A stretch of DNA of 64,000 nt from Escherichia phage EC_OE_11, in sequence record OQ108497.1. One strand, given 5' to 3'. Position numbers and translations under genes: made by a program. The notes beneath the pieces are model-generated. The model made no database searches. It had not been told where the DNA came from and saw only the letters and a program-made list of their open reading frames with translations. Below, one piece after another: positions 8,832 through 54,338 of this stretch (its first letter is position 1; every line of letters begins with the position of its first letter).

Positions 8832-11660
8832 ATGTATCCTATTCCTTTATTTATGTCAACAACATCAGCTTCAGGAGTAACAGCTACATCTATAACCACT
8901 GCCTCTATTGGTATTGCAATAGTTGGTAGTAAAAAACAACTGACATACACAGTTTCACCGGAAGATGGTGCGTTATTTGATATAGCTTTTTCATCTTCAG
9001 ATAATACCAAAATGGTTATAGATAATAGTGGTATGATGGAGTTTGTTGCTGAAGGTGGTTTTGATGCAATAATGACAGCTAAAAATAATTTAGGTGCTGT
9101 CTTAACTGATCAATCTGGTGGTTATGCTTCAGAATTAAGTGTGTACACTGAAAGTCTATCTGCTATGGATGTAGGCACTACTCAACAGTTGGTTGCTACA
9201 ATCAATCCAGAAGGTGCTAAAGACCTTCCAGATATGGTAATTACGTACACCACAACAGATCCAGAAGTAGCTACTGTAAGCCCTACAGGATTAATAACTG
9301 CTCTTAAAGATGGTAATTGCCGTATAGGTTGTACTGCAACGTATCAAGGAACAGTTGTGGCCTCTGATAGTTCTTATTTAGGTGTTAATGCTATTCCTGT
9401 TATTTCTAATGTAACAGCCGTGGCAAACAGCTATGGAGACGTTCGTGTTGCTTGGGATGTAGCTGATCCGCTAGATGGTGATACTTATACTGTAGAAGTG
9501 TTAGATTTAAGTAATAACAGTGTTCAGTGGACTACAACAACCACGAATACTCATGCTTACTTTGATATCTCTGACTCTATTCCTCTTTATGGGTTTGCTC
9601 CAACATACCTTAAAATTAGCGTTAAGAGCACCAAAGCAGCACCTGTTATCTTTAATAACTCAATAGCTACAGATGATTCGTTCATTAAAGAAGTTATTGT
9701 CTTTGCTGGACAAGATAACGTAAATGCGCACTTTACAGAACTATCTGGTGCAAATAAAGCAGCAATGAGTAGCACAACAGCCCGTAATGCATATGCTACG
9801 CAACGTGGTTTAGCAAATGCTGAAGTTCTTCCGTTAAATACAGCTTCTGGATCATCAGCAGCAGATAAATATGCTGACGATAAAGCTGGAACAGGTACAC
9901 CAGACAACTACTGGTATGATCTGGATAACACAGCAGATGGGCCATGCTTAACTAATTTTATCACTAAAGTCACACCTTATGCAAGTAAGGTTAAAGCAAT
10001 TATTTGGGGACAAGGTGAAAATGATGCTGTATCAGCATCTTCAACTGTTGCAGGTAGATACAGTAACACTACACGTTACCATGATGCTACAATAGCTATC
10101 TTTGATAAGATGCGTACAATAGTTCCTGCTTCTCAAGCAAAAATTGTTTGGCAGATCCTAGGACGTTCTTATTTATATGGTGTAGAAGTTAATGGTGTGG
10201 ATTGGCAGAAATACAGAAATGTACAAAGAGCCATCTCTACGGCACGTGATGATGTTATCATTGGTTCTTGGGTAGATGGTGCTGAACGTTACAGTGGCTA
10301 TGTTTATGAAGAAGGTATTGATGGTCGTATCCATTATGTTTCTTCTGTATACCAGACAGCAGCTACAAAACTTGCTAAATCAGCAGCAGACGGTACAGAC
10401 CTAACATCAACGTCACCTGTTTGGGTTGATATGGCTGTTCCAACTGGAGCAACAGCTACTTCCCAACCTAATCAAGATACAATTTTAGCATGGGATGCTC
10501 AAGGCTATAGTAAACACTACTTCCGTAATATTAACGTCTTAACAGCATCTGTATTAACTGAACAAACACTTAATACGAACAGCTATACGTTTACCTATGC
10601 AGATCAAGTAGCACAATATGGTTTTGCAGCAGGAACTACTATATTTGATGTTGCATATTATGACGAAGCAAATGATGTGTTATCTCCTTTAGTACGTTTT
10701 AATGTTAACGTTACAGCAGGAACCGAAGAAGATAAACCTGTCGTGATGGACTATGATTTGACGCAAGAAACTCTTCCATCAGATGTGCGCGTAAACAGGA
10801 GCAACCATTATGCTAGGGCTTCTGGAGATATCCTTGTACCGACAGAGGTTTCTGCTCCTGTAGCACCTTTAGAATATATTGGTACAACGCCACAAGGTAG
10901 ACGTGTTGTAGCAGCCAACCGTACATATATCTTTGTCAACAATAACTTGACAACAGCTTCCCCGTGGTTGAAGACGAACTTGACAGTTACAGCATCAACA
11001 ATCAACTCTCCGGTTGGAACTACAGCTAACACTTACAAGTTAACACCTTCTACAACTTCAGGACAACATATTTTATCAGCAGTGAATACAGCTTCTGATA
11101 TTACAGCAGGTAGGCAATGGGCTGCATCTGTATTCTTGAAGCCAGACGGGATCACTAAAGTGAAGCTCAAATTGACTTCAGGAGATGAGGTTAACGAAGG
11201 GACTTATGATCTTGAAGCTGGAACATTTACAGGCACAGATGCAAATATGATCGACATGGGGAATGGTTGGTATCGTGTAATCTTACATAAAGTAACGGTT
11301 GCTAAACAAGCCTCTATGACTTATGAGATTATAGCTTTGAATGCCAGTGGATCAGACACTTTTGCAGGAGATGGCACTGGAGGTCTTATTGCTTGGGTTC
11401 CACAACTTGAAATGGGCGATATGACAAACCCAGTTTGGGCGGGGACACCATTTGTTTGTACTTATGCACGAGATACAGATAGTGCTGCCACCTTCACTAT
11501 TCCTAAGAACGGACACACTGGCGTGGATATTTACCACACAGATGGAACTGTGCAAAGAGAGATTTTCACGGGCACAGCTACTACCTGGATGTTATCATTC
11601 AACGCCGCAAGTGCAGATTGGGGATCGAAATTCATCTCTGGTTTGAAATATTACGACTAA
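8832..11660 (+). CDS. tail fibre/tailspike protein with Ig-like (Big_2-like) and SGNH/esterase-like domains
   Basis: 942 aa; AAGGAG RBS; Big_2-like segment (VITYTTTDPEVATVSPTGLITALKDGNCRIGCTATYQG); central region with esterase-like motifs (VIVFAGQDNVNAHF ... IWGQGENDA). Confidence 0.45.
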   Translation: MYPIPLFMSTTSASGVTATSITTASIGIAIVGSKKQLTYTVSPEDGALFDIAFSSSDNTKMVIDNSGMMEFVAEGGFDAIMTAKNNLGAVLTDQSGGYASELSVYTESLSAMDVGTTQQLVATINPEGAKDLPDMVITYTTTDPEVATVSPTGLITALKDGNCRIGCTATYQGTVVASDSSYLGVNAIPVISNVTAVANSYGDVRVAWDVADPLDGDTYTVEVLDLSNNSVQWTTTTTNTHAYFDISDSIPLYGFAPTYLKISVKSTKAAPVIFNNSIATDDSFIKEVIVFAGQDNVNAHFTELSGANKAAMSSTTARNAYATQRGLANAEVLPLNTASGSSAADKYADDKAGTGTPDNYWYDLDNTADGPCLTNFITKVTPYASKVKAIIWGQGENDAVSASSTVAGRYSNTTRYHDATIAIFDKMRTIVPASQAKIVWQILGRSYLYGVEVNGVDWQKYRNVQRAISTARDDVIIGSWVDGAERYSGYVYEEGIDGRIHYVSSVYQTAATKLAKSAADGTDLTSTSPVWVDMAVPTGATATSQPNQDTILAWDAQGYSKHYFRNINVLTASVLTEQTLNTNSYTFTYADQVAQYGFAAGTTIFDVAYYDEANDVLSPLVRFNVNVTAGTEEDKPVVMDYDLTQETLPSDVRVNRSNHYARASGDILVPTEVSAPVAPLEYIGTTPQGRRVVAANRTYIFVNNNLTTASPWLKTNLTVTASTINSPVGTTANTYKLTPSTTSGQHILSAVNTASDITAGRQWAASVFLKPDGITKVKLKLTSGDEVNEGTYDLEAGTFTGTDANMIDMGNGWYRVILHKVTVAKQASMTYEIIALNASGSDTFAGDGTGGLIAWVPQLEMGDMTNPVWAGTPFVCTYARDTDSAATFTIPKNGHTGVDIYHTDGTVQREIFTGTATTWMLSFNAASADWGSKFISGLKYYD

Positions 11661-27826: not shown

Positions 27827-28059
27827 TACACATTCTCCTCTTTTACCAATTCCATCGTTGAACTATCAAAACCATCTTTAGAAGAATAGGTATAGACAGG
27901 ACGTAGTTCTCGCAGGACAGTGAATACATTAGGATCATCTAACCAAGCATCCTGGAGGAGAACATAACGATCTTCATTGTCGTACTGGACAGCAATCATA
28001 GAACCAGACAGTTTGTAAATTTTAATATTCATAATATATTTCTCCTTAAAGTAGACCAC
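27826..28059 (-). CDS. hypothetical protein
   Basis: 77 aa ORF, translationally coupled. Confidence 0.25.
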   Translation of the reverse strand: MVYFKEKYIMNIKIYKLSGSMIAVQYDNEDRYVLLQDAWLDDPNVFTVLRELRPVYTYSSKDGFDSSTMELVKEENV

Positions 28060-29149
28060 GTTTAACAGTTTGAATCATACCATCTTCAAGAGATTGTACT
28101 TCTTGGATGTAATCAATACGAGCAGCACGGGCTTCAGTGTTGATTCGGTTAGTTTCTTCCAACATTTTAACTAAGTTTTCTTGATCGCGACGTAGTGTTT
28201 CAATATCCAATACTTGACGATTAGCAAGTTGTGTAGCTTCAATTTGGTTTTGTGCAGCCAGATCACTACCCATTGCAATAGCAGCATTAAATTCATTCAG
28301 TACATTGTTCTGTGTATCGGCTGCTTTCTTCTGGCGTAGACTTTCAATATACATAGAAAAGTTTGCAGAGTAAGCAGGGATAACATTATTCACAATGTTA
28401 CGTGCTGATCGCATCAAACTTGCAGATACTTTCTGCATACTTTGTACACGTGGCCCCATCTGAACACACAGTAAACGCAAGGCTTTCAGGTCTGCAATAC
28501 GAATTTCAAGCAGATCCATAGTATCACGAGTACGTTGACGCTCTTCTACTTCATTTTCAGGTAGAGTATTAAGGCGAACTTCTTCTTTTTCATAAGTAGC
28601 TGTTAGAAGCTCTATATCCCTGTTTAAGCTAAGAGCATATTTTGCAATAGCCTCTTCTAAACGTTGCAGATATCGTAAAGAATCTTCTTCTTTTTTCAAG
28701 TCTGTTTGGAGTGTCTTTACCAAACCTTCAATACGATTATTGATGGTGTCAAACTCTCCAAACAAATCTTCTTTCATACCTAACACTTTCTTAACTAGCT
28801 TACCTAAACCTTTAGATTGTTTAATAGAATTAGGATCAAGTTGCTTTGCTTGCTTAATAAGTGCAGTTAAACGTTCACTCATTTCATCTCCCTGGGATGA
28901 ACGCTGGTGTTTAAGCACTTCAGCATTAAGGTTACGAAGAGTAAGTCCTGCATCAGCACCAACTTGTTCAATCTCTTCACGAGACATTGGAGGCAGCATT
29001 TGTACAGGTCGTGCAACAGCAGGTGCATATACAGGGCTTGCATCCATAGCACTTGGAGCAAACAAAGACTTACTCTTTTCTGTTGTTGCCGTGAATACAC
29101 TCATTTCAGACGGTTTGCTTTTTACGGCACTGATAAAAGGACTGGACAT
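28046..29149 (-). CDS. TelA-like (toxic anion resistance/KlaB-like) protein
   Basis: 367 aa, mostly helical/coiled-coil, size and composition like the TelA family; within TerD/TerC neighbourhood. Assigned by context and composition, not alignment. Confidence 0.4.
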   Translation of the reverse strand: MSSPFISAVKSKPSEMSVFTATTEKSKSLFAPSAMDASPVYAPAVARPVQMLPPMSREEIEQVGADAGLTLRNLNAEVLKHQRSSQGDEMSERLTALIKQAKQLDPNSIKQSKGLGKLVKKVLGMKEDLFGEFDTINNRIEGLVKTLQTDLKKEEDSLRYLQRLEEAIAKYALSLNRDIELLTATYEKEEVRLNTLPENEVEERQRTRDTMDLLEIRIADLKALRLLCVQMGPRVQSMQKVSASLMRSARNIVNNVIPAYSANFSMYIESLRQKKAADTQNNVLNEFNAAIAMGSDLAAQNQIEATQLANRQVLDIETLRRDQENLVKMLEETNRINTEARAARIDYIQEVQSLEDGMIQTVKRGLL

Positions 29150-29217
29150 TCAATTTCCTCCATATTCTTTAGTAGATGGTGATACCTCTGTACCACCATC
29201 ATAACACAAATTAAGTA

Positions 29218-30069
29218 TTAAACAAACATATCTAAATAATTTGTAGTAATAAATGCTCCATCTGCTTCCAGATTAACATAACCAGTAGCATTAGTGGTTA
29301 AGAAATCCAGATCGAAGGACTCTTTAACACCCCGTACCTCAACACGAGAGATATCGAATACAGGTAGTGTAACAGCCTCTTCGTGCAATACCGTACCTTT
29401 GTAGGTTGCCTTAATGATAAACTTGATATTACCCGTTCCAGCATCATACAAAACACTTTCAAACCCTTTGAGAGTATATTTATCACCAGAAGTGAAGTGC
29501 AAAGTTGCTTTGTTTACAGTACGTTTTTTACGAGGAGTTCCTTTCACACGTTTATGATCACTACGTTTTTTGTATTTAGGAATGAATACAAACGATACAC
29601 TCTCAAGAAAGGTATCAACATCAAGGATTTTAATATCCTCTGTTGCAGCAAATTTTGAAGTCGTTGCATCAAAATGCTTTCCCCTGCGATCATACATAAA
29701 GATATCAAACCGATCTTCTAAATCAAACAAATTATGTATCTTAATTTCAGAATGCTTGCACATTGCAGCAACCTTAAACTCTTCAAAACGTGGGTGTTCT
29801 ACCAGTTCTTCAAGTTTTACACCAAAGACAGTATATGGTTTCGAAGTTTTTTCTGGTGTTGGCATTACAGAAGCATAATCACCGATTGCGCTCTTAAAGC
29901 AAAATTGTTCTTGACCTGTATTTTTACCAACGAATTTACAGTATTCGTCATCGTGCATGCTTTCCTTGGTAGTACCAACAAACTCAAAACCATCTTTATT
30001 CTTCTCAAGAATTTCTTGATTAAAGATCCAACCTTCCAGGCGATACACTTTACCAACTTCTAGTTTCAT
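29218..30069 (-). CDS. hypothetical protein
   Basis: 283 aa ORF between TelA-like and lipoprotein genes. Confidence 0.3.
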   Translation of the reverse strand: MKLEVGKVYRLEGWIFNQEILEKNKDGFEFVGTTKESMHDDEYCKFVGKNTGQEQFCFKSAIGDYASVMPTPEKTSKPYTVFGVKLEELVEHPRFEEFKVAAMCKHSEIKIHNLFDLEDRFDIFMYDRRGKHFDATTSKFAATEDIKILDVDTFLESVSFVFIPKYKKRSDHKRVKGTPRKKRTVNKATLHFTSGDKYTLKGFESVLYDAGTGNIKFIIKATYKGTVLHEEAVTLPVFDISRVEVRGVKESFDLDFLTTNATGYVNLEADGAFITTNYLDMFV

Positions 30070-30104
30070 CTGTTTCTCCTTCTTGTTTAATCTGTATTAA
30101 ATTA

Positions 30105-30695
30105 TTAACGACGACGTGAGCTACTAAAACTACGTTTCGACGAAGAATAACTTTTCGAAGACTTACTATAAGAGCTAATAGGACTTGAGTAAGACTTACG
30201 AGCAGAGTAATCACTATTCACTTTTGTTGTTGATGGGCGTGAATACGTTTGTACACTTTGCTGCTTAATTGTGTTTTGTTTAGTGGTTGTATATGTATTT
30301 ACAGGTTTATCATAAAAACTACGCTTTTGTGTTGTATATGATTTACTGTTAGTTGTAGGAGCAGCATTGTTATTAATAATGGTTGTATTGCTACCACCAT
30401 CTCTATAACCACCACCGCCACTATTACCACTCAACATATGACCAAGAAGCATACCTGTAGCAAATTCACCTACACCAGAAGAACTACTACCGCCTCCTTG
30501 CACAACAACTGTTGAAGGTTGTGCAGGTGCTGCTTGAACAACTTGAGGTGCAGGTTGATTTACATATTGTTCATCTACCATCTGATTTGGTGTTTGTTGG
30601 TAACGTTGATTTTGTACATTTTCAGAATCATCACAACCTACCAGCAATACACTACCTAATACAACTGCAACAATAAAAGATTTAATGTTTTTCAT
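30105..30695 (-). CDS. lipoprotein with Ser/Gln/Tyr-rich low-complexity region
   Basis: Start set at ATG 30695 behind GAGAGGG RBS; signal peptide plus lipobox (SVLLVGC); long Q/S/Y/T-rich tail. Confidence 0.45.
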   Translation of the reverse strand: MKNIKSFIVAVVLGSVLLVGCDDSENVQNQRYQQTPNQMVDEQYVNQPAPQVVQAAPAQPSTVVVQGGGSSSSGVGEFATGMLLGHMLSGNSGGGGYRDGGSNTTIINNNAAPTTNSKSYTTQKRSFYDKPVNTYTTTKQNTIKQQSVQTYSRPSTTKVNSDYSARKSYSSPISSYSKSSKSYSSSKRSFSSSRRR

Positions 30696-30888
30696 TTGTA
30701 ACCCTCTCATTTAAAGTCTCAACACAATTTTTAAAATCCCTAGAGAAACAATACATCTGTTCTCCGTTCCTGTTGATAGTAATTGTATGATTATCAATGT
30801 ATGTTGTCAAGATAAAAATCAAACAAAATAACCCTAAAGCAAAACAAATATTTTCAAACAGAATCCAAAGAACACGTAAAACCACCAT
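30682..30888 (-). CDS. small membrane protein
   Basis: 68 aa with hydrophobic FALGLFCLIFILTTYI segment. Confidence 0.3.
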   Translation of the reverse strand: MVVLRVLWILFENICFALGLFCLIFILTTYIDNHTITINRNGEQMYCFSRDFKNCVETLNERVTNEKH

Positions 30889-30904
30889 CAGATCACCTCA
30901 ACAA

Positions 30905-30922
30905 AGCCCCCGAAGGGGCTTA
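30905..30922 (-). terminator. GC hairpin downstream of TerC-like gene
   Basis: AGCCCC-CGAA-GGGGCT stem-loop. Confidence 0.4.
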
Positions 30923-30927
30923 ATGAA

Positions 30928-31905
30928 TTAAGCAACAGCCTGGTCTTCTTTTTCAGGGAAGATTAAACTTGCAATGACACCCAGCCCCAGAGTACCTAAC
31001 ACAATATACATACTGATCGTCGGATCAATGTGTGCTGGCAGGAAACTCACTTTTGCGTGCAGAGTTTCTGCAAACGGGTGATACATCAGTTTTACACCCA
31101 CAAATACCAGGACTACGATAACTGCTTTCTCCAGATGAACCAAATATTTCAGTGCAACACTAAGGACAAAGAACAGAGCACGTAGACCTAAAATTGCACA
31201 CAGCATTGAAGAAAATACAAGCAGAGGTTCTTGTGTCACTGCAATTACTGCTGGAACAGAGTCTACTGCAAAGATTACGTCAACCATTTCCATTACAAAC
31301 ACACAAACCAGAGCCGGAGTTGCTACACGAACACCATTTTTGATTGTGAAGAACTTCTCACCATCCATCTGATCAGATACAGGGAACAGCTTACGAACAA
31401 TGCGAGTAGCCCAGTGTTTAGAGTAATCAACTTCTGCGTCATTATCTCCAGCGAATACCATTTTAGCTGCACAGAAAAGGATGACCGCACCGAAGAAGAT
31501 ATTAACATACCAGCCCAAACTCAACAAATAAGTGCCTACTGCTACAAACACACCTCGGAAGACAATCGCACCTGCAATACCCCAAAGTAGAATCTTGTGT
31601 TGCAAGTGTGTGCTTTTAATACCAAAACTTGCGAATACTGCCACAAATACTACTAAGTTATCTACAGAAAGAGATTTCTCCAACACATATCCACTCAAGA
31701 ACAAGCTCGCAAAATCAGCACCGTGCTGGAAGTATACAAAACCATAGTAGGCTAATGATACCCCAATCCAGAAAATTGACCAACCAATTGCAGATTTAAA
31801 TGAAATTTCTTTGTTTTCTCTGTGTCCAAAGAAATCAATACAAATCGACAACACTAAAATACCCACTAAAACAACCACATCAATAATTGGGAAACCCAGT
31901 TGCAT
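30928..31905 (-). CDS. TerC-family integral membrane protein
   Basis: 325 aa, multiple TM helices; duplicated TerC signature (LEKSLSVDNLVVF and EMVDVIFAVDSVPAVIAVT). Confidence 0.7.
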   Translation of the reverse strand: MQLGFPIIDVVVLVGILVLSICIDFFGHRENKEISFKSAIGWSIFWIGVSLAYYGFVYFQHGADFASLFLSGYVLEKSLSVDNLVVFVAVFASFGIKSTHLQHKILLWGIAGAIVFRGVFVAVGTYLLSLGWYVNIFFGAVILFCAAKMVFAGDNDAEVDYSKHWATRIVRKLFPVSDQMDGEKFFTIKNGVRVATPALVCVFVMEMVDVIFAVDSVPAVIAVTQEPLLVFSSMLCAILGLRALFFVLSVALKYLVHLEKAVIVVLVFVGVKLMYHPFAETLHAKVSFLPAHIDPTISMYIVLGTLGLGVIASLIFPEKEDQAVA

Positions 31906-36266: not shown

Positions 36267-36737
36267 TTAGTCAGATTCCCAAATGTTGTCTTTCTTAACC
36301 CACATTCGTTGATTATCTGAACCTCTATAACGTTTCGTTGTTGGTTGATTCATATCATACTTACCATCTATCACTATGTCAACCAGTTTTTTAATTTTTT
36401 CTGGAATTTCTTCAAAAAGATATCCTGTATATAAAACAATATCTTTTTTGTTTCCAAAACAATCTCTTACCTTCTCAAGAACATACTCTACAGTGTCAAT
36501 GTTCTCTTTGTCAAGAGGTTCACCACCTAAAACTGTTAATCCTTTAATGAAAGGTCGAGATAAATCTTCCAAGATAAGATCTAATGTTTCAGCAGTGAAC
36601 TCTTGTCCGTAGTTATACGACCAGGCTTTCTGGTTAAAGCAGCCACGGCAACCGTGGCTGCAACCGCTCACCCACAAAGAGCATCTTACACCGTCACCGT
36701 TGAGCATGTCAACAGGTTCATATCCGGCGTAATTCAA
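36267..36737 (-). CDS. nrdG: anaerobic ribonucleoside-triphosphate reductase activating protein
   Basis: 156 aa; radical-SAM cluster motif CSHGCRGCFN; directly downstream of nrdD with 4 nt overlap. Confidence 0.8.
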   Translation of the reverse strand: MNYAGYEPVDMLNGDGVRCSLWVSGCSHGCRGCFNQKAWSYNYGQEFTAETLDLILEDLSRPFIKGLTVLGGEPLDKENIDTVEYVLEKVRDCFGNKKDIVLYTGYLFEEIPEKIKKLVDIVIDGKYDMNQPTTKRYRGSDNQRMWVKKDNIWESD

Positions 36738-38533
36738 AAGTGTTTCTCCCTTTCTAGTACCTCTTGCATTTTACCTTTATTATAAGGGCGAGAGTTAGGG
36801 GCAGAAAGGTATCCTGACACTCTTCTGATCACAGATATGGATTCTTCTTCATGATTACCGCAACTTGGACACTCGAAGCCTTTAGCCGTTGCTTTAAATT
36901 CACCATGAAAACCACATTTGAAACACTGATCTACAGGTTGGTTCACGCCAAAATAAGGAATTTTGTTGTAGGCATAATCTACAAGAGTTTCCAGTGCTTG
37001 CAAGTTATTTTTAAGGTTTGGTGTTTCTACATAACCTATGTTCCCACCATTACTAATTTGTGCAAAACCTTCCTCATAATCCCATTTTTGGAACGGGGTA
37101 GTGTGCATCCATACAGGTTGATGGAAAGAGTTTGTCAAGTAGTCACGATCAATAGAACCAGGATAGCGATCATTTAACGCTTTGGCAAATTTATAGCACA
37201 AGGATTCTGCTGGTGTTCCATACAAACTAAAAGCTAAACCAGAACGTTCTTTAAATGTGCAACAGATATCCTTCATATATTGAAGGATGTTTTTACCCAT
37301 TGCTTTTGGATTGGTGTTATTTGGGTATAAAATTTCCATAGCTTCTGCTAAACCTACATAACCGATACTAATAGAGGCATAACCACCCTCAAATAGTTTA
37401 CCAATCTCTTCATTAGCTTCTAGTCGAGCTAAAGCCCCTTCCATAAACAATGTAGGGTTTTGAGATGCTTTGGTATGTCTAATACGGTTAACACGTAGCA
37501 TATGTGCCTTATACGCCATCTCCATATGTTGTTCCAACAGTTCAGTAAATAAGATGCCCTTTTCACGGGACTCTGCTGCAATGATAGGTAAGTTTAAAGA
37601 AACCACGCCTAAGTTGAAACGACCATCATATTTTTCACCTTGCTCTGTTGCATAATATGACAAGAAACTACGGCAACCCATGCTTGTGACGCGACCATCT
37701 GAAGATCCTGTAACTTCTTTGTTTAAAGGTACAGAGATAAAATCAGGATAAATGCGTTCAGCACAACACTCCATTGCCAGTTGCTTCAAATCATAGTTTG
37801 GATCGCCAGCTTTCATGTTAACACCATCTTCCAAGAAGAAGATAACTTTAGGAAACACAGGAGTTACCCTATCTTTTCCTAATCCTTGTTTGTGCACCAT
37901 TAGGTAGTTTTTAGTGATCATTCTACCAAAAGCAGAGGTATCCAAGCCTAAACTAATTGTTATAAAAGGTGACTGACCATTTACACTCATCAAGGTGTTC
38001 ACCTGGTAGATTAAAGTTTGCATTGCATCGTAAACCTGTTTATCTACCATACGCATAGCAATATCATAATCGCCAACATCGGCATAGATTTTATTAAAAC
38101 TTGCTTTAACGTATTGACTAAGCCCAGTATCAATATGTGCACAAGTTTGTCCACCATATTGGCTAGAAGCTACTGCTTGAATAATTTGAGTTAGGACAGT
38201 AGTTGCTACACCGATAGATTTTGGTTTTTCAATATGTGCATTACCAATACGGAAACCGTTCTCAAGCATATCTTGGTAATTTACCAGGCAACAATTAGTT
38301 AGAGGTGAGAGTAAATAATCTAAATCGTGAATATGACCATACCCACTTTTATGCCATTCTGCCAGATCTTCCGGTAAAATATGGGTCATTGCCATGTGCT
38401 TGCTTAGGATACCTGCTAGTAAGTCTCGGTGAGTATTAACAATCATTGCAGGTTTGTTTGCATTTTCACGAGTAAATTCTTCGGATGTTTGTTCGAGGAA
38501 TCCGATTACATCCTCATATAGTTTTTGGGTCAT
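36734..38533 (-). CDS. nrdD: anaerobic ribonucleoside-triphosphate reductase (class III)
   Basis: Start set at ATG 38533 (MTQKLYEDV) behind GGAGG RBS; C-terminal Zn-ribbon (CFKCGFHGEF ... CPSCGNHEE) and glycyl-radical motif RRVSGYL. Confidence 0.85.
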   Translation of the reverse strand: MTQKLYEDVIGFLEQTSEEFTRENANKPAMIVNTHRDLLAGILSKHMAMTHILPEDLAEWHKSGYGHIHDLDYLLSPLTNCCLVNYQDMLENGFRIGNAHIEKPKSIGVATTVLTQIIQAVASSQYGGQTCAHIDTGLSQYVKASFNKIYADVGDYDIAMRMVDKQVYDAMQTLIYQVNTLMSVNGQSPFITISLGLDTSAFGRMITKNYLMVHKQGLGKDRVTPVFPKVIFFLEDGVNMKAGDPNYDLKQLAMECCAERIYPDFISVPLNKEVTGSSDGRVTSMGCRSFLSYYATEQGEKYDGRFNLGVVSLNLPIIAAESREKGILFTELLEQHMEMAYKAHMLRVNRIRHTKASQNPTLFMEGALARLEANEEIGKLFEGGYASISIGYVGLAEAMEILYPNNTNPKAMGKNILQYMKDICCTFKERSGLAFSLYGTPAESLCYKFAKALNDRYPGSIDRDYLTNSFHQPVWMHTTPFQKWDYEEGFAQISNGGNIGYVETPNLKNNLQALETLVDYAYNKIPYFGVNQPVDQCFKCGFHGEFKATAKGFECPSCGNHEEESISVIRRVSGYLSAPNSRPYNKGKMQEVLEREKHF

Positions 38534-38553
38534 TAATCCTCCGTGGAAAATAA

Positions 38554-38576
38554 AAGCCAGCATTAAGCTGGCTTTA
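38554..38576 (-). terminator. rho-independent terminator-like hairpin
   Basis: AAGCCAGC-ATTA-AGCTGGCTTT; on minus strand followed by TTTTATTTTCC; between 38623 stop and nrdD RBS. Confidence 0.5.
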
Positions 38577-52347: not shown

Positions 52348-52899
52348 ATGCGGATTACTGATAAGTATGTGTTCTTCTTCTCGGCAAAAGATGAATTTAG
52401 CAACTGGTATCTATCATCTTTTATTGAACCTTTAGCTCCCAAGTATAATAATTCTATTACAAGTTCTGTTGAATTTACTTGTGTGGAACAATATATGATG
52501 TGGAGAAAAGCATGTTTGTTTTATGATTACAACATTGCATCTTCTATTTTAACCGGAGATCTAAGATATACAGGAGAAAAAGAACAGGCATATTATAAGC
52601 GACTAGGTAGATTAGTTAAAGATTACGATGAAGCTACTTGGACTTCTTTACGGGAGAAGATTGTCAAGCGTGGTTTGTATCTTAAATACACACAAAATGA
52701 AGATCTCAAAAATAAACTTATAGCTTACGCAGATAAGGAGTTTGTAGAGGCAAGTCCTTATGATTCTATTTATGGTATCAAAATGGGGATGTGGGATCGG
52801 GACGTGGAAAATAAGGATTGTTGGAAAGGACAAAATCTTTTAGGAAAATGGCATACAGACCTTGCTGTTTATCTAAAATCACAATCTGATATTTCCTGA
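52348..52899 (+). CDS. NADAR-domain protein (YbiA-like, DUF1768)
   Basis: 183 aa; motifs FFFSAKDEFSNWY, EQYMMWRKA, LGR and YDSIYGI match conserved NADAR blocks (compare E. coli YbiA FYS ... FSNF, EHYFQAQKF). Confidence 0.65.
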   Translation: MRITDKYVFFFSAKDEFSNWYLSSFIEPLAPKYNNSITSSVEFTCVEQYMMWRKACLFYDYNIASSILTGDLRYTGEKEQAYYKRLGRLVKDYDEATWTSLREKIVKRGLYLKYTQNEDLKNKLIAYADKEFVEASPYDSIYGIKMGMWDRDVENKDCWKGQNLLGKWHTDLAVYLKSQSDIS

Positions 52900-53110
52900 T
52901 ATTTTGAAAATTTTTACTTTTATAAAAAGGGGTGTGGGTTTCATGTACGGAAATCCACCCTCTGAATAATATATCCAGAGTAAATATTATTCTGTACTCT
53001 GTTAATAAAGTATTTAATTTGTTTGTTGGACTATGGTATCTGATCTTTAAAAGGCATACTATCTCTTAACTACTATTTATAACAGAACAGTAAAATCATT
53101 TTTATAAAAA

Positions 53111-53320
53111 GGACAAAATTATTTAAAGTTTTTACAGATTTTTGGATACAAATTTTGAAAATGAAAAGTTCAAGTTTGGTCAAAATTATTTAAAGTTTTT
53201 GTACGTATTTCTATCCAGATTTTGAAAATGAAAACTTCAATTTTTTAAAAATTCCCCAGTTTATTTAAAGTTTTTTTGCCTTTTTCCGTAGAAAAATCAA
53301 AAATGAAAAGTTCAATTTCG
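53111..53320. repeat. three tandem ~70 bp AT-rich direct repeats (iteron-like)
   Basis: Each unit has ATTATTTAAAGTTTTT (at about 53118, 53184, 53260) and TTTGAAAATGAAAAGTTCAA (at about 53152, 53220, 53296); no ORF across 52900-53340. Confidence 0.6.
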
Positions 53321-53335
53321 TGTTTTTATAGGTGT

Positions 53336-53460
53336 GCGTATGATAATCATTCTCATTTGTAAATGAGAATCATTATCATTTAATTATGTAAGTGATAATC
53401 ATTCTCAGTAAGAGAATGAGAATCATTAGCAAATGAGAATTTTTCTCATTTAGAGAATAA
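53336..53460. promoter_or_regulatory. cluster of Fur-box-like palindromic operator sites
   Basis: TGATAATCATTCTCATT, AATGAGAATCATTATCATT, GTGATAATCATTCTCA, GAATGAGAATCATTAGC and the perfect palindrome AAATGAGAATTTTTCTCATTT; close to the enterobacterial Fur consensus GATAATGATAATCATTATC. Confidence 0.45.
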
Positions 53461-53684
53461 CGCGCAGGGGTGGTGTTTGTCTCGCGCTCCCGTGTCCCTC
53501 GCCATACAATAAGAATAGCATAACCAACAACAAAAGCAAGCGATTATTTTTATCTTTACATTTCTTTACAAATTTATTTTAGACGAGCTACCGGCGATCA
53601 ACCTTCCAACCAGTGCCCCTGGTATGTTAGCCCCGCCTTTACGCCGTGGGGGTGGCGCTTCCTCTTCTGTATGTAAAACAGTAT

Positions 53685-53724
53685 AAGCCCGATCCCTGGG
53701 CTTGTCAAGATTATTTTTTGTTTT
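53685..53724 (+). terminator. candidate rho-independent terminator in GC-rich island
   Basis: AAGCCCGATCCCTGGGCTT hairpin followed by TTATTTTTTGTTTT. Confidence 0.35.
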
Positions 53725-54087
53725 CTTGCCAGGAAAGGACACCTAACCAAAAATACATATCGCCCCGCGCCCCTGGCGGGATCTTGCTTTCCCCGCCGCC
53801 ACTGCAAGCCCATAAATAACCATCAGCGAACGGATCAAAATGTTCTATCTCTTCCACCTTATGATCGCCCAGGTTGAGAACGGTTTCAACCTTTAAGCCC
53901 GTTGCGCTTGCTACCTGGTGCACCGTGCCGCCTTGCCAGCCCAATGAGTGCATGAGATGTAAAGGAGTATTTGTCATGGTATCGCCCTTTCTTTGATGTG
54001 CGCCCTGGTTGGCGCGGTAGAAAGATAATAGCCGTTTCCTTTATAGATAGCAAGCAAAAAGAAATGAAAAAAAGATTAAAAAATGGT

Positions 54088-54116: not shown

Positions 54117-54242
54117 CATCTTGTCGAGGGGGGCAAGGCACAACGACAATAAACAATAGGCGGGTGCAATGCAGGACGGGCAAAGGTGAGGATCTCCACA
54201 ATCCACCGTCACAATAACATTACTTATAAAAGGTTGATAACG

Positions 54243-54338
54243 ATGATCAAGAAAGAAAACAGCTTGACGGTTGGAACGATTAACGCTATCATTCTAGCCG
54301 TTCCATTTTGGATTGTAGTAGCGGTTGTTATTTTCTAA
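54243..54338 (+). CDS. small hydrophobic peptide (31 aa)
   Basis: MIKKENSLTVGTINAIILAVPFWIVVAVVIF; AAAAGG upstream; about 120 nt structured leader from promoter at 54088. Confidence 0.3.
   Translation: MIKKENSLTVGTINAIILAVPFWIVVAVVIF

Follow-up and report, generated by a model that had tools for sequence, protein, structure and literature searches.

Candidate host Fur operators arrayed in a non-coding control region shared by phi92-like and rV5-like phages

In a 64,000-nt stretch of the Escherichia phage EC_OE_11 genome (OQ108497.1; the window, to which coordinates refer unless another genome is named), five discrete 19-bp palindromic boxes that closely resemble operators of the host iron regulator Fur were found within positions 53339–53450. 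On balance, we favour the reading that they are high-affinity host Fur sites, maintained by selection within the non-coding, promoter-rich DNA that forms an early control region in phi92-like and rV5-like phages, where they would make leftward non-coding transcription iron-responsive. That host Fur is the protein bound by the boxes appears likely from the comparisons below, and the array is a known site type in a new setting and arrangement. The locus probably also holds two conserved, unannotated non-coding transcripts from host-type promoters. For Fur-box arrays in these or other virulent phages, for Fur titration by phages and for transcript maps of this clade, we found nothing relevant in the searchable literature.

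The five boxes share the consensus AATGAGAATCATTCTCATT and a single geometry that can be written as 6-3-6 or 7-1-7 (TGAGAA-NNN-TTCTCA) and is equivalent to the 7-1-7 Fur motif. Being palindromes without an assigned strand, they comprise box 1 (TATGATAATCATTCTCATT, 53339–53357), box 2 (AATGAGAATCATTATCATT, 53362–53380), box 3 (AGTGATAATCATTCTCAGT, 53391–53409), box 4 (AATGAGAATCATTAGCAAA, 53415–53433) and the proximal box 5 (AATGAGAATTTTTCTCATT, 53432–53450), with a box-to-box spacing of 17–29 bp. Their cores start at 53341 (TGATAATCATTCTCA), 53364 (TGAGAATCATTATCA), 53393 (TGATAATCATTCTCA), 53417 (TGAGAATCATTAGCA) and 53434 (TGAGAATTTTTCTCA), respectively. An earlier sequence-only reading had described an array of palindromic half-sites at this locus, and the DNA agrees with that description. 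The last copy, which it had called a perfect palindrome, is really a perfect 9-nt inverted repeat around a 3-nt centre (AAATGAGAA-TTT-TTCTCATTT) with the same geometry as the other boxes.

We then compared the boxes with known Fur motifs. The pattern TGATAATNATTATCA with up to two mismatches had five matches in the 64 kb, four of them in the array, while shuffled sequences gave a mean of 0.94 and none of 100 reached five; three boxes, including box 1, differ from this pattern at one position. The classical 19-mer GATAATGATAATCATTATC with up to three mismatches matched twice in the 64 kb, both times in the array, against 0.03 matches expected. In addition, a position weight matrix (PWM) for Fur was learnt de novo, without use of the consensus, by a palindromic 19-mer sampler from ten Fur-regulated intergenic regions of E. 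coli K-12 (fepA-fes, fepD-entS, fepB-entC, fhuA, tonB, cirA, ryhB, fecI, fecA and exbB). The sampler converged on AATGATAATnATTATCATT. The resulting matrix, which rests on ten sites, was specific: across 70 kb of K-12 DNA, matches of 12 bits or more were confined to the training regions, including secondary sites on which it had not been trained.

With this matrix, boxes 1–5 scored 22.0, 23.9, 15.0, 17.9 and 17.5 bits (ranges 21.6–22.0, 23.5–23.9, 14.8–15.0, 17.6–17.9 and 17.0–17.5 bits), and they occupied ranks 1–4 and 6 among all positions of the window, box 2 being the best. The ten native K-12 sites, scored by leaving each one out in turn, ranged from 2.5 to 20.4 bits with ryhB as the best, and the phage boxes were thus within or above the native range. 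The ryhB operator AATAATAATCATTCTCATT (20–21 bits) contains the phage half-site ATTCTCATT. Seven positions of at least 10 bits were found in 53339–53450, compared with 0.03 per 125 bp and a maximum of two in Markov sequences of the local AT-rich composition. Scoring with a Fur matrix, which the sequence-only reading had suggested as a check, therefore places the region far above AT-rich background.

Fur clusters are reported to contain overlapping sites spaced 6 bp apart (PMC2189734), a 6-bp offset at which two dimers lie on opposite faces of the DNA (PMC2189734; PMC4506495), and a classical 19-bp Fur box binds two dimers (PMC4506495). Weaker sites with this very offset were found beside box 1 (53333, 6 bp to the left and overlapping, 9.4 bits), box 3 (53385, 10.9 bits) and box 4 (53409, 10.8 bits), and likewise in the terminal repeat of phage phi92 and in phage T5. 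In each half-site, Arg57 of Fur contacts a conserved guanine and Tyr56 contacts thymines (PMC4506495). The earlier claim of Fur-box-like operators is upheld by PWM scores that equal or exceed those of native E. coli sites, by the near-invariance in the phage boxes of the guanine for Arg57 and of the thymines next to it, and by the weaker sites at a 6-bp offset. Capture of a host promoter was also considered as the origin of the array and rejected, since blastn against 5,426 complete E. coli genomes returned only short, chance-level matches (E of at least 1).

The 1.2 kb surrounding the array was 97–98% identical to the DNA of phi92-like myophages (Justusliebigvirus, Stephanstirmvirinae), e.g. 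BME3, PHB05 and PaulScherrer. Homologous loci were gathered by BLAST matches together with a DNA pattern scan, and a route through neighbouring proteins yielded just 5 loci; BLAST was run with low-complexity filtering, and the collection is not a census of phage families. It includes Phapecoctavirus, unclassified Klebsiella Stephanstirmvirinae and Vequintavirinae (PVP-SE1, 4MG, Mydo, CB7, P7_Pc, ChuuTotoro and others). Boxes were found at the same place in both Stephanstirmvirinae and Vequintavirinae, in phages of at least seven Enterobacterales host genera (E. coli, Klebsiella, Salmonella, Proteus, Serratia, Pectobacterium and Erwinia). At nearly all loci, between one and five boxes reached 12 bits, with none comparable within 700 nt on either side, the low numbers of one or two being those of PVP-SE1, Mydo, L026 and L028. 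The proximal box was located at a fixed −185 to −198 from the anchor GTTAGCCCCGCC in the relatives, with the exceptions of L026 (−235) and of P7_Pc, which has an insertion. Additional boxes were often exactly 29 bp apart, which corresponds to a 19-bp box and a 10-bp linker of free sequence.

Three records labelled as C. jejuni phages (MG065639, MG065650 and MG065656; ‘Campylobacter phage A150, B15, C3’) were 85–98% identical to the E. coli phi92-like and Phapecoctavirus genomes. Over the locus, the identity was 96.4% for A150 and 85.0% for B15, and over the phi92 terminal-repeat query it was 97.9% for A150 and C3. These records probably represent mislabelled or contaminant isolates.

From 39 distinct box sequences at 22 loci of the two subfamilies, we obtained the logo AATGA(G/T)AAT(c)ATT(C/a)TCATT. 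The bases kept were T at −7 (39/39), G at −6 (38/39), T at +3 (39/39), C at +6 (35/39) and A at +7 (39/39), of which G at −6 corresponds to the guanine contacted by Arg57 of Fur (PMC4506495). The motif does not drift across phages whose adjacent proteins share only 35–57% identity. One systematic difference from the E. coli matrix was observed: the phage boxes favour G at −4 (23 of 39) and C at +4 (31 of 39), where G/C has a frequency of 0.20 in the ten-site PWM and T/A is favoured. The same G/C bases are seen in the strong native Fur sites of ryhB, fhuA, exbB and fecI, but are a minority there. The −4,+4 combinations were G,C in 18 boxes, T,C in 13, G,A in 5 and T,A in 2, and the two positions varied independently (Fisher p = 0.68).

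This independence of the two arms excludes selection for a hairpin and is compatible with a protein that accepts either base. It bears on an explanation by nucleic-acid structure, in which the boxes would act as RNA hairpins (terminators or processing sites) or DNA cruciforms, or would be a chance product of the AT-rich repeats nearby. Every box is indeed an inverted repeat inside the inferred transcript described below, and boxes 1 and 2 together form a 38-bp near-palindrome. However, the arms do not covary: only 20 of the 39 boxes have complementary bases at −4 and +4, and in the box seen most often T stands opposite C. None of the boxes is followed by a U-tract, and a chance product is excluded by the mismatch-pattern, 19-mer and PWM controls above and by the genome-wide control given below. 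We consider this explanation highly improbable, and for the same two reasons, the lack of covariation at the −4/+4 positions and of a T-run after any box, the specific reading of the boxes as RNA hairpins or intrinsic terminators was rejected.

A sensitive BLAST search with a 136-nt array query also reached the long terminal repeats of about two hundred T5-like phages. In T5 itself (L045, NC_005859), positions 9552–9715 contain seven PWM positions of at least 12 bits, which represent four distinct boxes, three with a 6-bp-offset partner, and reach 18.9, 23.5, 19.3 and 16.7 bits among others; one 19-mer is identical to box 2 of the window. In the Yersinia phage phiR2-01 (L044), at least eight boxes were found at 1390–1620. 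The T5 array lies within the annotated ‘injection stop signal’ (iss), just right of a DnaA-box inverted repeat, and after correction for an 80-bp record offset it maps to the 66-bp DRE repeats. The DRE repeats are among the likely iss candidates and are situated near the estimated shear point of first-step transfer (10.1101/866236), in a region that the same work describes as repeats and palindromes only, with no mention of Fur or iron. A search for homologs of the T5 pre-early proteins, including A1 and the DNA-binding A2, gave none that was convincing, the best being a 42-aa match to T5.017 (E = 0.023). The same motif in T5-like phages without a shared pre-early protein points to a shared host factor.

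These observations also bear on the possibility that the boxes are an operator array for a phage-encoded protein whose specificity resembles that of Fur or has evolved to overlap it. The G/C difference at −4/+4 would be accounted for by such a protein, the boxes occur at several non-coding early loci as operators of phage regulators do, the interval of exactly 29 bp seen in many relatives suggests protein-protein contacts that are not described for Fur, and the neighbourhood encodes many small early proteins of unknown function. Nevertheless, the match to Fur spans all of the other 17 informative positions and the half-site spacing, the G/C variant is itself present in strong native sites, and neither the window, nor phi92 1–50 kb, nor the complete Justusliebigvirus alia genome, nor any of the clade's members in the phage collection yielded a Fur homolog. 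Given the absence of a phage Fur homolog, the motif that does not drift among diverged neighbours and its recurrence in T5-like phages, a conserved host protein is the simplest common binder, and we regard a phage-encoded one as improbable. Among the three functions that the sequence-only reading had proposed for the array, namely iron regulation, Fur titration and operators of a phage repressor, sequence does not decide, although it makes the phage-encoded binder the less likely.

Returning to host Fur as the probable binder, we examined what the boxes might control. The array is in a gap of approximately 1.5 kb that is mostly non-coding, between an NADAR-domain gene on the left (52348–52899, plus strand) and small plus-strand genes on the right from ∼54428. 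The sole annotated open reading frame (ORF) in the gap is an 88-aa gene on the minus strand (53711–53977), a homolog of phi92 gp224 that is annotated in phi92 and alia, heads the leftward unit and matches PHROG 19316 (function unknown) with no Pfam match. Leftward on the minus strand, the order of elements is the small ORF, promoter P1, a GC-rich element of ∼100 nt, TGTAAAG repeats, promoter P2, a structured leader, the boxes and the AT-rich repeats; the promoters and transcript ends are predicted, not mapped. The array had been placed upstream of a structured plus-strand transcript in the sequence-only reading. The conserved promoters are instead on the minus strand and read towards the boxes, and the array is therefore downstream of a promoter and a structured leader, inside the transcription unit.

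P1 is a sigma-70-type promoter (TTGACA-17-TATACT, 53680–53708, minus strand) with 11 of 12 consensus matches, which reads into the ∼100-nt element. Its equivalent (TTGCAA-17-TATATT or TATAGT) was found independently in Mydo and PVP-SE1, and another in Mt1B1_P17. The ∼100-nt element (‘RNA-1’, 53575–53672, minus strand) is ∼80–85% identical between the two subfamilies while its flanks have diverged, and is probably an unannotated phage non-coding RNA. It contains one clearly covarying pair (AU/GC, 11:11) and a variable hairpin tip, and its strand was assigned mainly from the promoter, not from covariation. Its only bacterial homolog was in one 4-kb contig of a metagenome-assembled genome (MAG). 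In the Pectobacterium phage P7_Pc (L036), a second, diverged copy of the element is inserted beside the first.

Two direct TGTAAAG repeats (53554–53570, minus strand; TCTTTACnnnTCTTTAC), offset by 10 bp, immediately precede the P2 −35 hexamer in nearly all homologs. They may be an activator or UP-type element, and their layout is reminiscent of the tandem half-sites of winged-helix response regulators such as OmpR. P2 is a sigma-70-type promoter-like site (TTGCTT-16-TATTCT, 53512–53539, minus strand) with a predicted start at ∼53505. Its position is conserved, with TTGCAA-17-TATATT or TTGATC-16-TATTAT in Vequintavirinae and a spacer of variable sequence and fixed length. The inferred P2 transcript begins with a structured 5′ leader of ∼55 nt (‘RNA-2’, 53452–53505, minus strand), for which 17 distinct homologs were aligned. 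Its outer stem, AUGGCG or AUAGCGGG paired with CGUUAU or CCCGCUAU, opens at the predicted start. AU/GU/GC changes leave its pairing intact, and within it lies a hairpin whose loop, GAGACAAACACC, is conserved. The pairs are often G·U on the minus strand, which would be A × C on the plus strand, so that 92% of the cells are paired versus ∼80%. The boxes begin 6–7 nt past the leader stem and extend from +45 to +165 of P2, and in Vequintavirinae a third minus-strand promoter is found 17–40 bp beyond them.

On the far side of the array are three AT-rich direct repeats of ∼67–75 bp with 18–25% GC (53098–53318, no strand), which carry the motifs ATTTAAAGTTTTT ... AAAATGAAAAGTTCAA; in Vequintavirinae, the distal box is directly adjoined by a single unit related to them. 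Neither a consistent promoter nor an ORF was found inside these repeats, and 52900–53520 had no convincing ORF. A hairpin at 52928–52962, considered as a candidate terminator of the leftward unit, is more stable on the plus strand (−19.2 versus −11.8 kcal/mol), with a U-run on the minus strand only. The boxes themselves include weak promoter-like hexamers (TTCTCA-18-TATCAT) on both strands.

Two further candidates were tried. A Fur-repressed plus-strand promoter over the proximal box (TTGAAT-18-nnGAAT), rejected as the main reading, has no −35 hexamer in Stephanstirmvirinae and an unconserved −11 base, and the conserved GAAT at the proximal box is explained by the outer stem of the minus-strand leader and not by a plus-strand −10. 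A Fur-repressed small RNA gene of the RyhB type was set aside since there was no Rfam or RyhB match in the window and five relatives, no plus-strand promoter with a conserved −10 past the proximal box and no terminator. More generally, the locus had no credible Rfam match in these six phages, the two chance-level hits (E = 0.4–1) being far under the gathering score, and no tRNA was found there. As a separate observation, the −10/+1 region of E. coli ryhB (L018) shares a 12-nt identity, TTGTCTCGCGAT, with PVP-SE1-type leaders (L012/L011/L040), and the window has TTGTCTCGCGCT at the ryhB-like leader stretch (53472–53487); the similarity may be chance, and the Rfam RyhB model does not match.

From this layout, we propose the following mechanism. 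In iron-sufficient cells, Fe2+-Fur dimers would occupy the boxes, two per 19-bp box, and jointly form a protein block of ∼110 bp that begins 45 bp downstream of the P2 start on the minus strand, directly past the conserved 5′ stem-loop. Fewer or no leftward non-coding transcripts would then run on into the AT-rich repeats, the promoter-like hexamers inside the boxes would be covered as well, and this transcription would thereby become iron-responsive. A second effect would be inseparable from the first, in that a genome carries ∼12 boxes and replication raises their number, so that much of the cellular Fur would be tied up. E. coli has a few thousand Fur dimers, and ∼12 boxes with two dimers each in one to two hundred genome copies would be of the same order. 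We infer the direction and sign of the transcriptional effect, as well as the titration, from sequence. The local effect is suggested by the fixed register of the proximal box to the P2 leader in nearly all loci; titration would follow from copy number and may be the selected function in many-box phages.

Several points weigh against this proposal. Fur sites usually overlap the −35/−10 of a promoter, but the boxes at +45 to +165 leave those of the best-conserved promoters free, and repression would thus need a roadblock instead of the classical Fur mechanism. The minus strand has no ORF downstream of the boxes, and P2 in the window matches the consensus poorly and was missed by the promoter listing that gave P1. 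In the Raoultella phage Ro1, the corresponding place is without a strong box, and phage A5-4 has one weak box there. In addition, the G/C bias at −4/+4 could reflect a different protein of related specificity.

To place the array in its genome, the complete sequence of alia (148,442 bp, 97% identical to the window) was scanned with the PWM. Twelve positions of at least 14 bits were obtained versus 0.75 expected, in three clusters within 12.4 kb next to the terminal repeat, all in AT-rich DNA and all but one of the positions non-coding. The clusters are the array, in the gap for which the alia record has two unexplained ‘repeat_region’ features from the depositors, a pair at 91355–91431 and a group at 92353–92572. 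The pair would fall ∼500 bp past the right end of the window, where a non-coding AT-rich stretch of ∼900 bp that leads up to the terminal repeat has its left edge, and the group corresponds to the annotated 343-bp direct terminal repeat of phi92. In phi92 (L043, FR775895.2), the terminal-repeat boxes are at 71–95 and 260–290 and include a perfect TGATAATCATTATCA and a 22.8-bit box inside TTGAAT-18-TATTCT. Beyond this box come ∼75 nt of GC-rich sequence and a terminator-like hairpin with a T-run, a part that is conserved in Klebsiella and Phapecoctavirus phages, and the arrangement looks, by its sequence, like a small Fur-controlled transcript. Nearer to the array, two weak Fur-like matches, TGATAACGATGATCA and AACGATTAACGCTATCATT (12.0 bits, borderline and about as strong as the native tonB site), were observed at 54235–54293 of the window. 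The AACGATTAACGCTATCATT match overlaps the −10 of a good plus-strand promoter (TTGACG-17-TATCAT, 54264–54292) upstream of small early genes.

The number of boxes raises the question of whether the main function is that of a Fur sponge, which would sequester Fur as genome copies accumulate and derepress the host iron-uptake and iron-sparing regulon, for instance to feed iron-dependent phage enzymes. The array is associated with no ORF, the excess of high-scoring, largely non-coding positions in alia is as a sponge would have it, the box scores are at the top of the native range, and the further boxes in the phi92 terminal repeat are present in two copies per virion genome. The phage also encodes an anaerobic ribonucleotide reductase, the activase of which needs an iron-sulfur cluster. 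Multicopy Fur boxes derepress the Fur regulon, which is the principle of the Fur titration assay (FURTA). On the other hand, sequestration would work from any position, whereas the distance from the proximal box to the P2 leader is maintained across subfamilies, and PVP-SE1, Mydo, L026 and L028 would have to function with their one or two boxes. T5, moreover, degrades host DNA early (according to the annotation of its gene A1), so that derepression of the host would gain little there. We therefore consider sequestration unlikely as the main function.

The clustering of all alia boxes within 12.4 kb adjoining the terminal repeat, the two boxes inside the 343-bp terminal repeat of phi92 and the placement of the T5 array in iss and its DRE repeats, beside the DnaA-box inverted repeat and near the shear point, would also suit a role at the DNA level. 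With a bound host protein, the boxes might serve in DNA entry, end protection, replication start or packaging, e.g. as an injection pause like T5 iss or as a transcription-activated origin. The order of promoter, G-rich leader, palindromes and AT-rich repeats resembles transcription-activated origins and lambda-type iteron origins. Against such a role, some relatives have a single box, too few for iterons, no DnaA boxes like those of T5 were found near the window array, the polymerase and primase-helicase genes are at least 30 kb away, and there is no adjacent initiator gene, the neighbours being an NADAR-domain protein, an HNH-type endonuclease and proteins of unknown function. We know of no role of Fur in DNA entry or replication, nor, to our knowledge, is two-step injection known for phi92-like phages. 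Such a role thus seems distinctly unlikely, slightly less so than a phage-encoded binder, and the narrower candidate of a replication-origin iteron array was rejected on the box number of 1–5 among relatives and on the lack of DnaA boxes and of an initiator neighbour, the AT-rich tract being present.

The favoured reading of host Fur sites in a control region can be widened, if only tentatively. Fur-box arrays may be a shared, unrecognised trait of early or terminal non-coding DNA in unrelated groups of virulent enterobacterial phages, namely the phi92-like, rV5-like and T5-like phages, in which Fur would be used as a host factor on the incoming or replicating genome. Its part there could be that of an iron sensor pacing early events, a physical block or anchor on the DNA, or a target for sequestration. 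If true, this would be a new kind of phage–host interface and would provide a concrete protein candidate for the long-unexplained stop of T5 first-step transfer, the array in T5 iss turning an old question into a simple experiment.

Fur boxes are textbook bacterial iron regulation, and on phages they are known as single sites before prophage cargo genes. If our reading of the array is true, a lytic virus itself would read or interfere with the iron signal of its host. Little iron is available in the gut and infected tissue, the places in which these broad-host-range phages occur and are used for therapy, and an iron-dependent infection would matter in practice. Elsewhere in the genome, the NADAR-domain gene left of the non-coding region is preceded by an HNH/CapR-type endonuclease gene, and TelA-like and TerC-family proteins and the anaerobic ribonucleotide reductase (NrdD) are encoded at 28046–31905 and 36734–38563 of the window.

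Among known systems, T5 repeat region 3/iss (DRE and DRC repeats; palE, palG and palH; 10.1101/866236) is, like the window locus, non-coding AT-rich DNA with no ORF, and it lies in the terminal repeat. It belongs to another phage family, and its neighbourhood has DnaA boxes, GTGCAAATCCGACA repeats and a nick site; T5 offers a parallel and not a mechanism. Lambda-type origin iterons and transcription-activated phage origins similarly have four to five palindromes of ∼19 bp, spaced by ∼23–29 bp, beside an AT-rich tract, with a promoter firing towards the array. In contrast to these origins, the phage boxes have the sequence of a host-repressor site, their copy number goes down to one, no initiator gene is adjacent and the same boxes recur at other loci. 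In FURTA, many strong Fur boxes per cell derepress the Fur regulon, and a replicating genome with ∼12 boxes would be a comparable multicopy carrier; FURTA is, however, a laboratory plasmid artefact, and we found no natural phage-borne Fur sponge described in the searchable literature.

The chromosomal Fur operators of Enterobacterales (ryhB, fhuA, fecI, fepA-fes, entC-fepB, cirA, exbB and the aerobactin operator iucA) share with the phage boxes the same 19-bp palindrome, half-site spacing and TGA/TCA core. The PWM scores of the phage boxes are equal or better, and clustered sites with weaker sites at a 6-bp offset are common to both (PMC2189734). The chromosomal operators overlap the −35/−10 of a gene promoter and their clustered sites overlap one another, whereas the phage has five discrete boxes with no downstream ORF, in a virulent setting and with a bias to G/C at ±4. 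The Shiga toxin 1 promoter is one case of a Fur box on temperate-phage cargo. Another is the sitABCD operon on lambdoid coliphages, which carries a Fur box on phage DNA (PMC6969025). In both the cargo and the array described here, a host Fur box would tie phage-borne expression to the iron status of the host; the cargo, however, is an accessory protein-coding gene, expressed from a prophage, with a single box at its promoter, whereas the present array is non-coding, composed of multiple boxes, carried by a lytic phage and found in two subfamilies.

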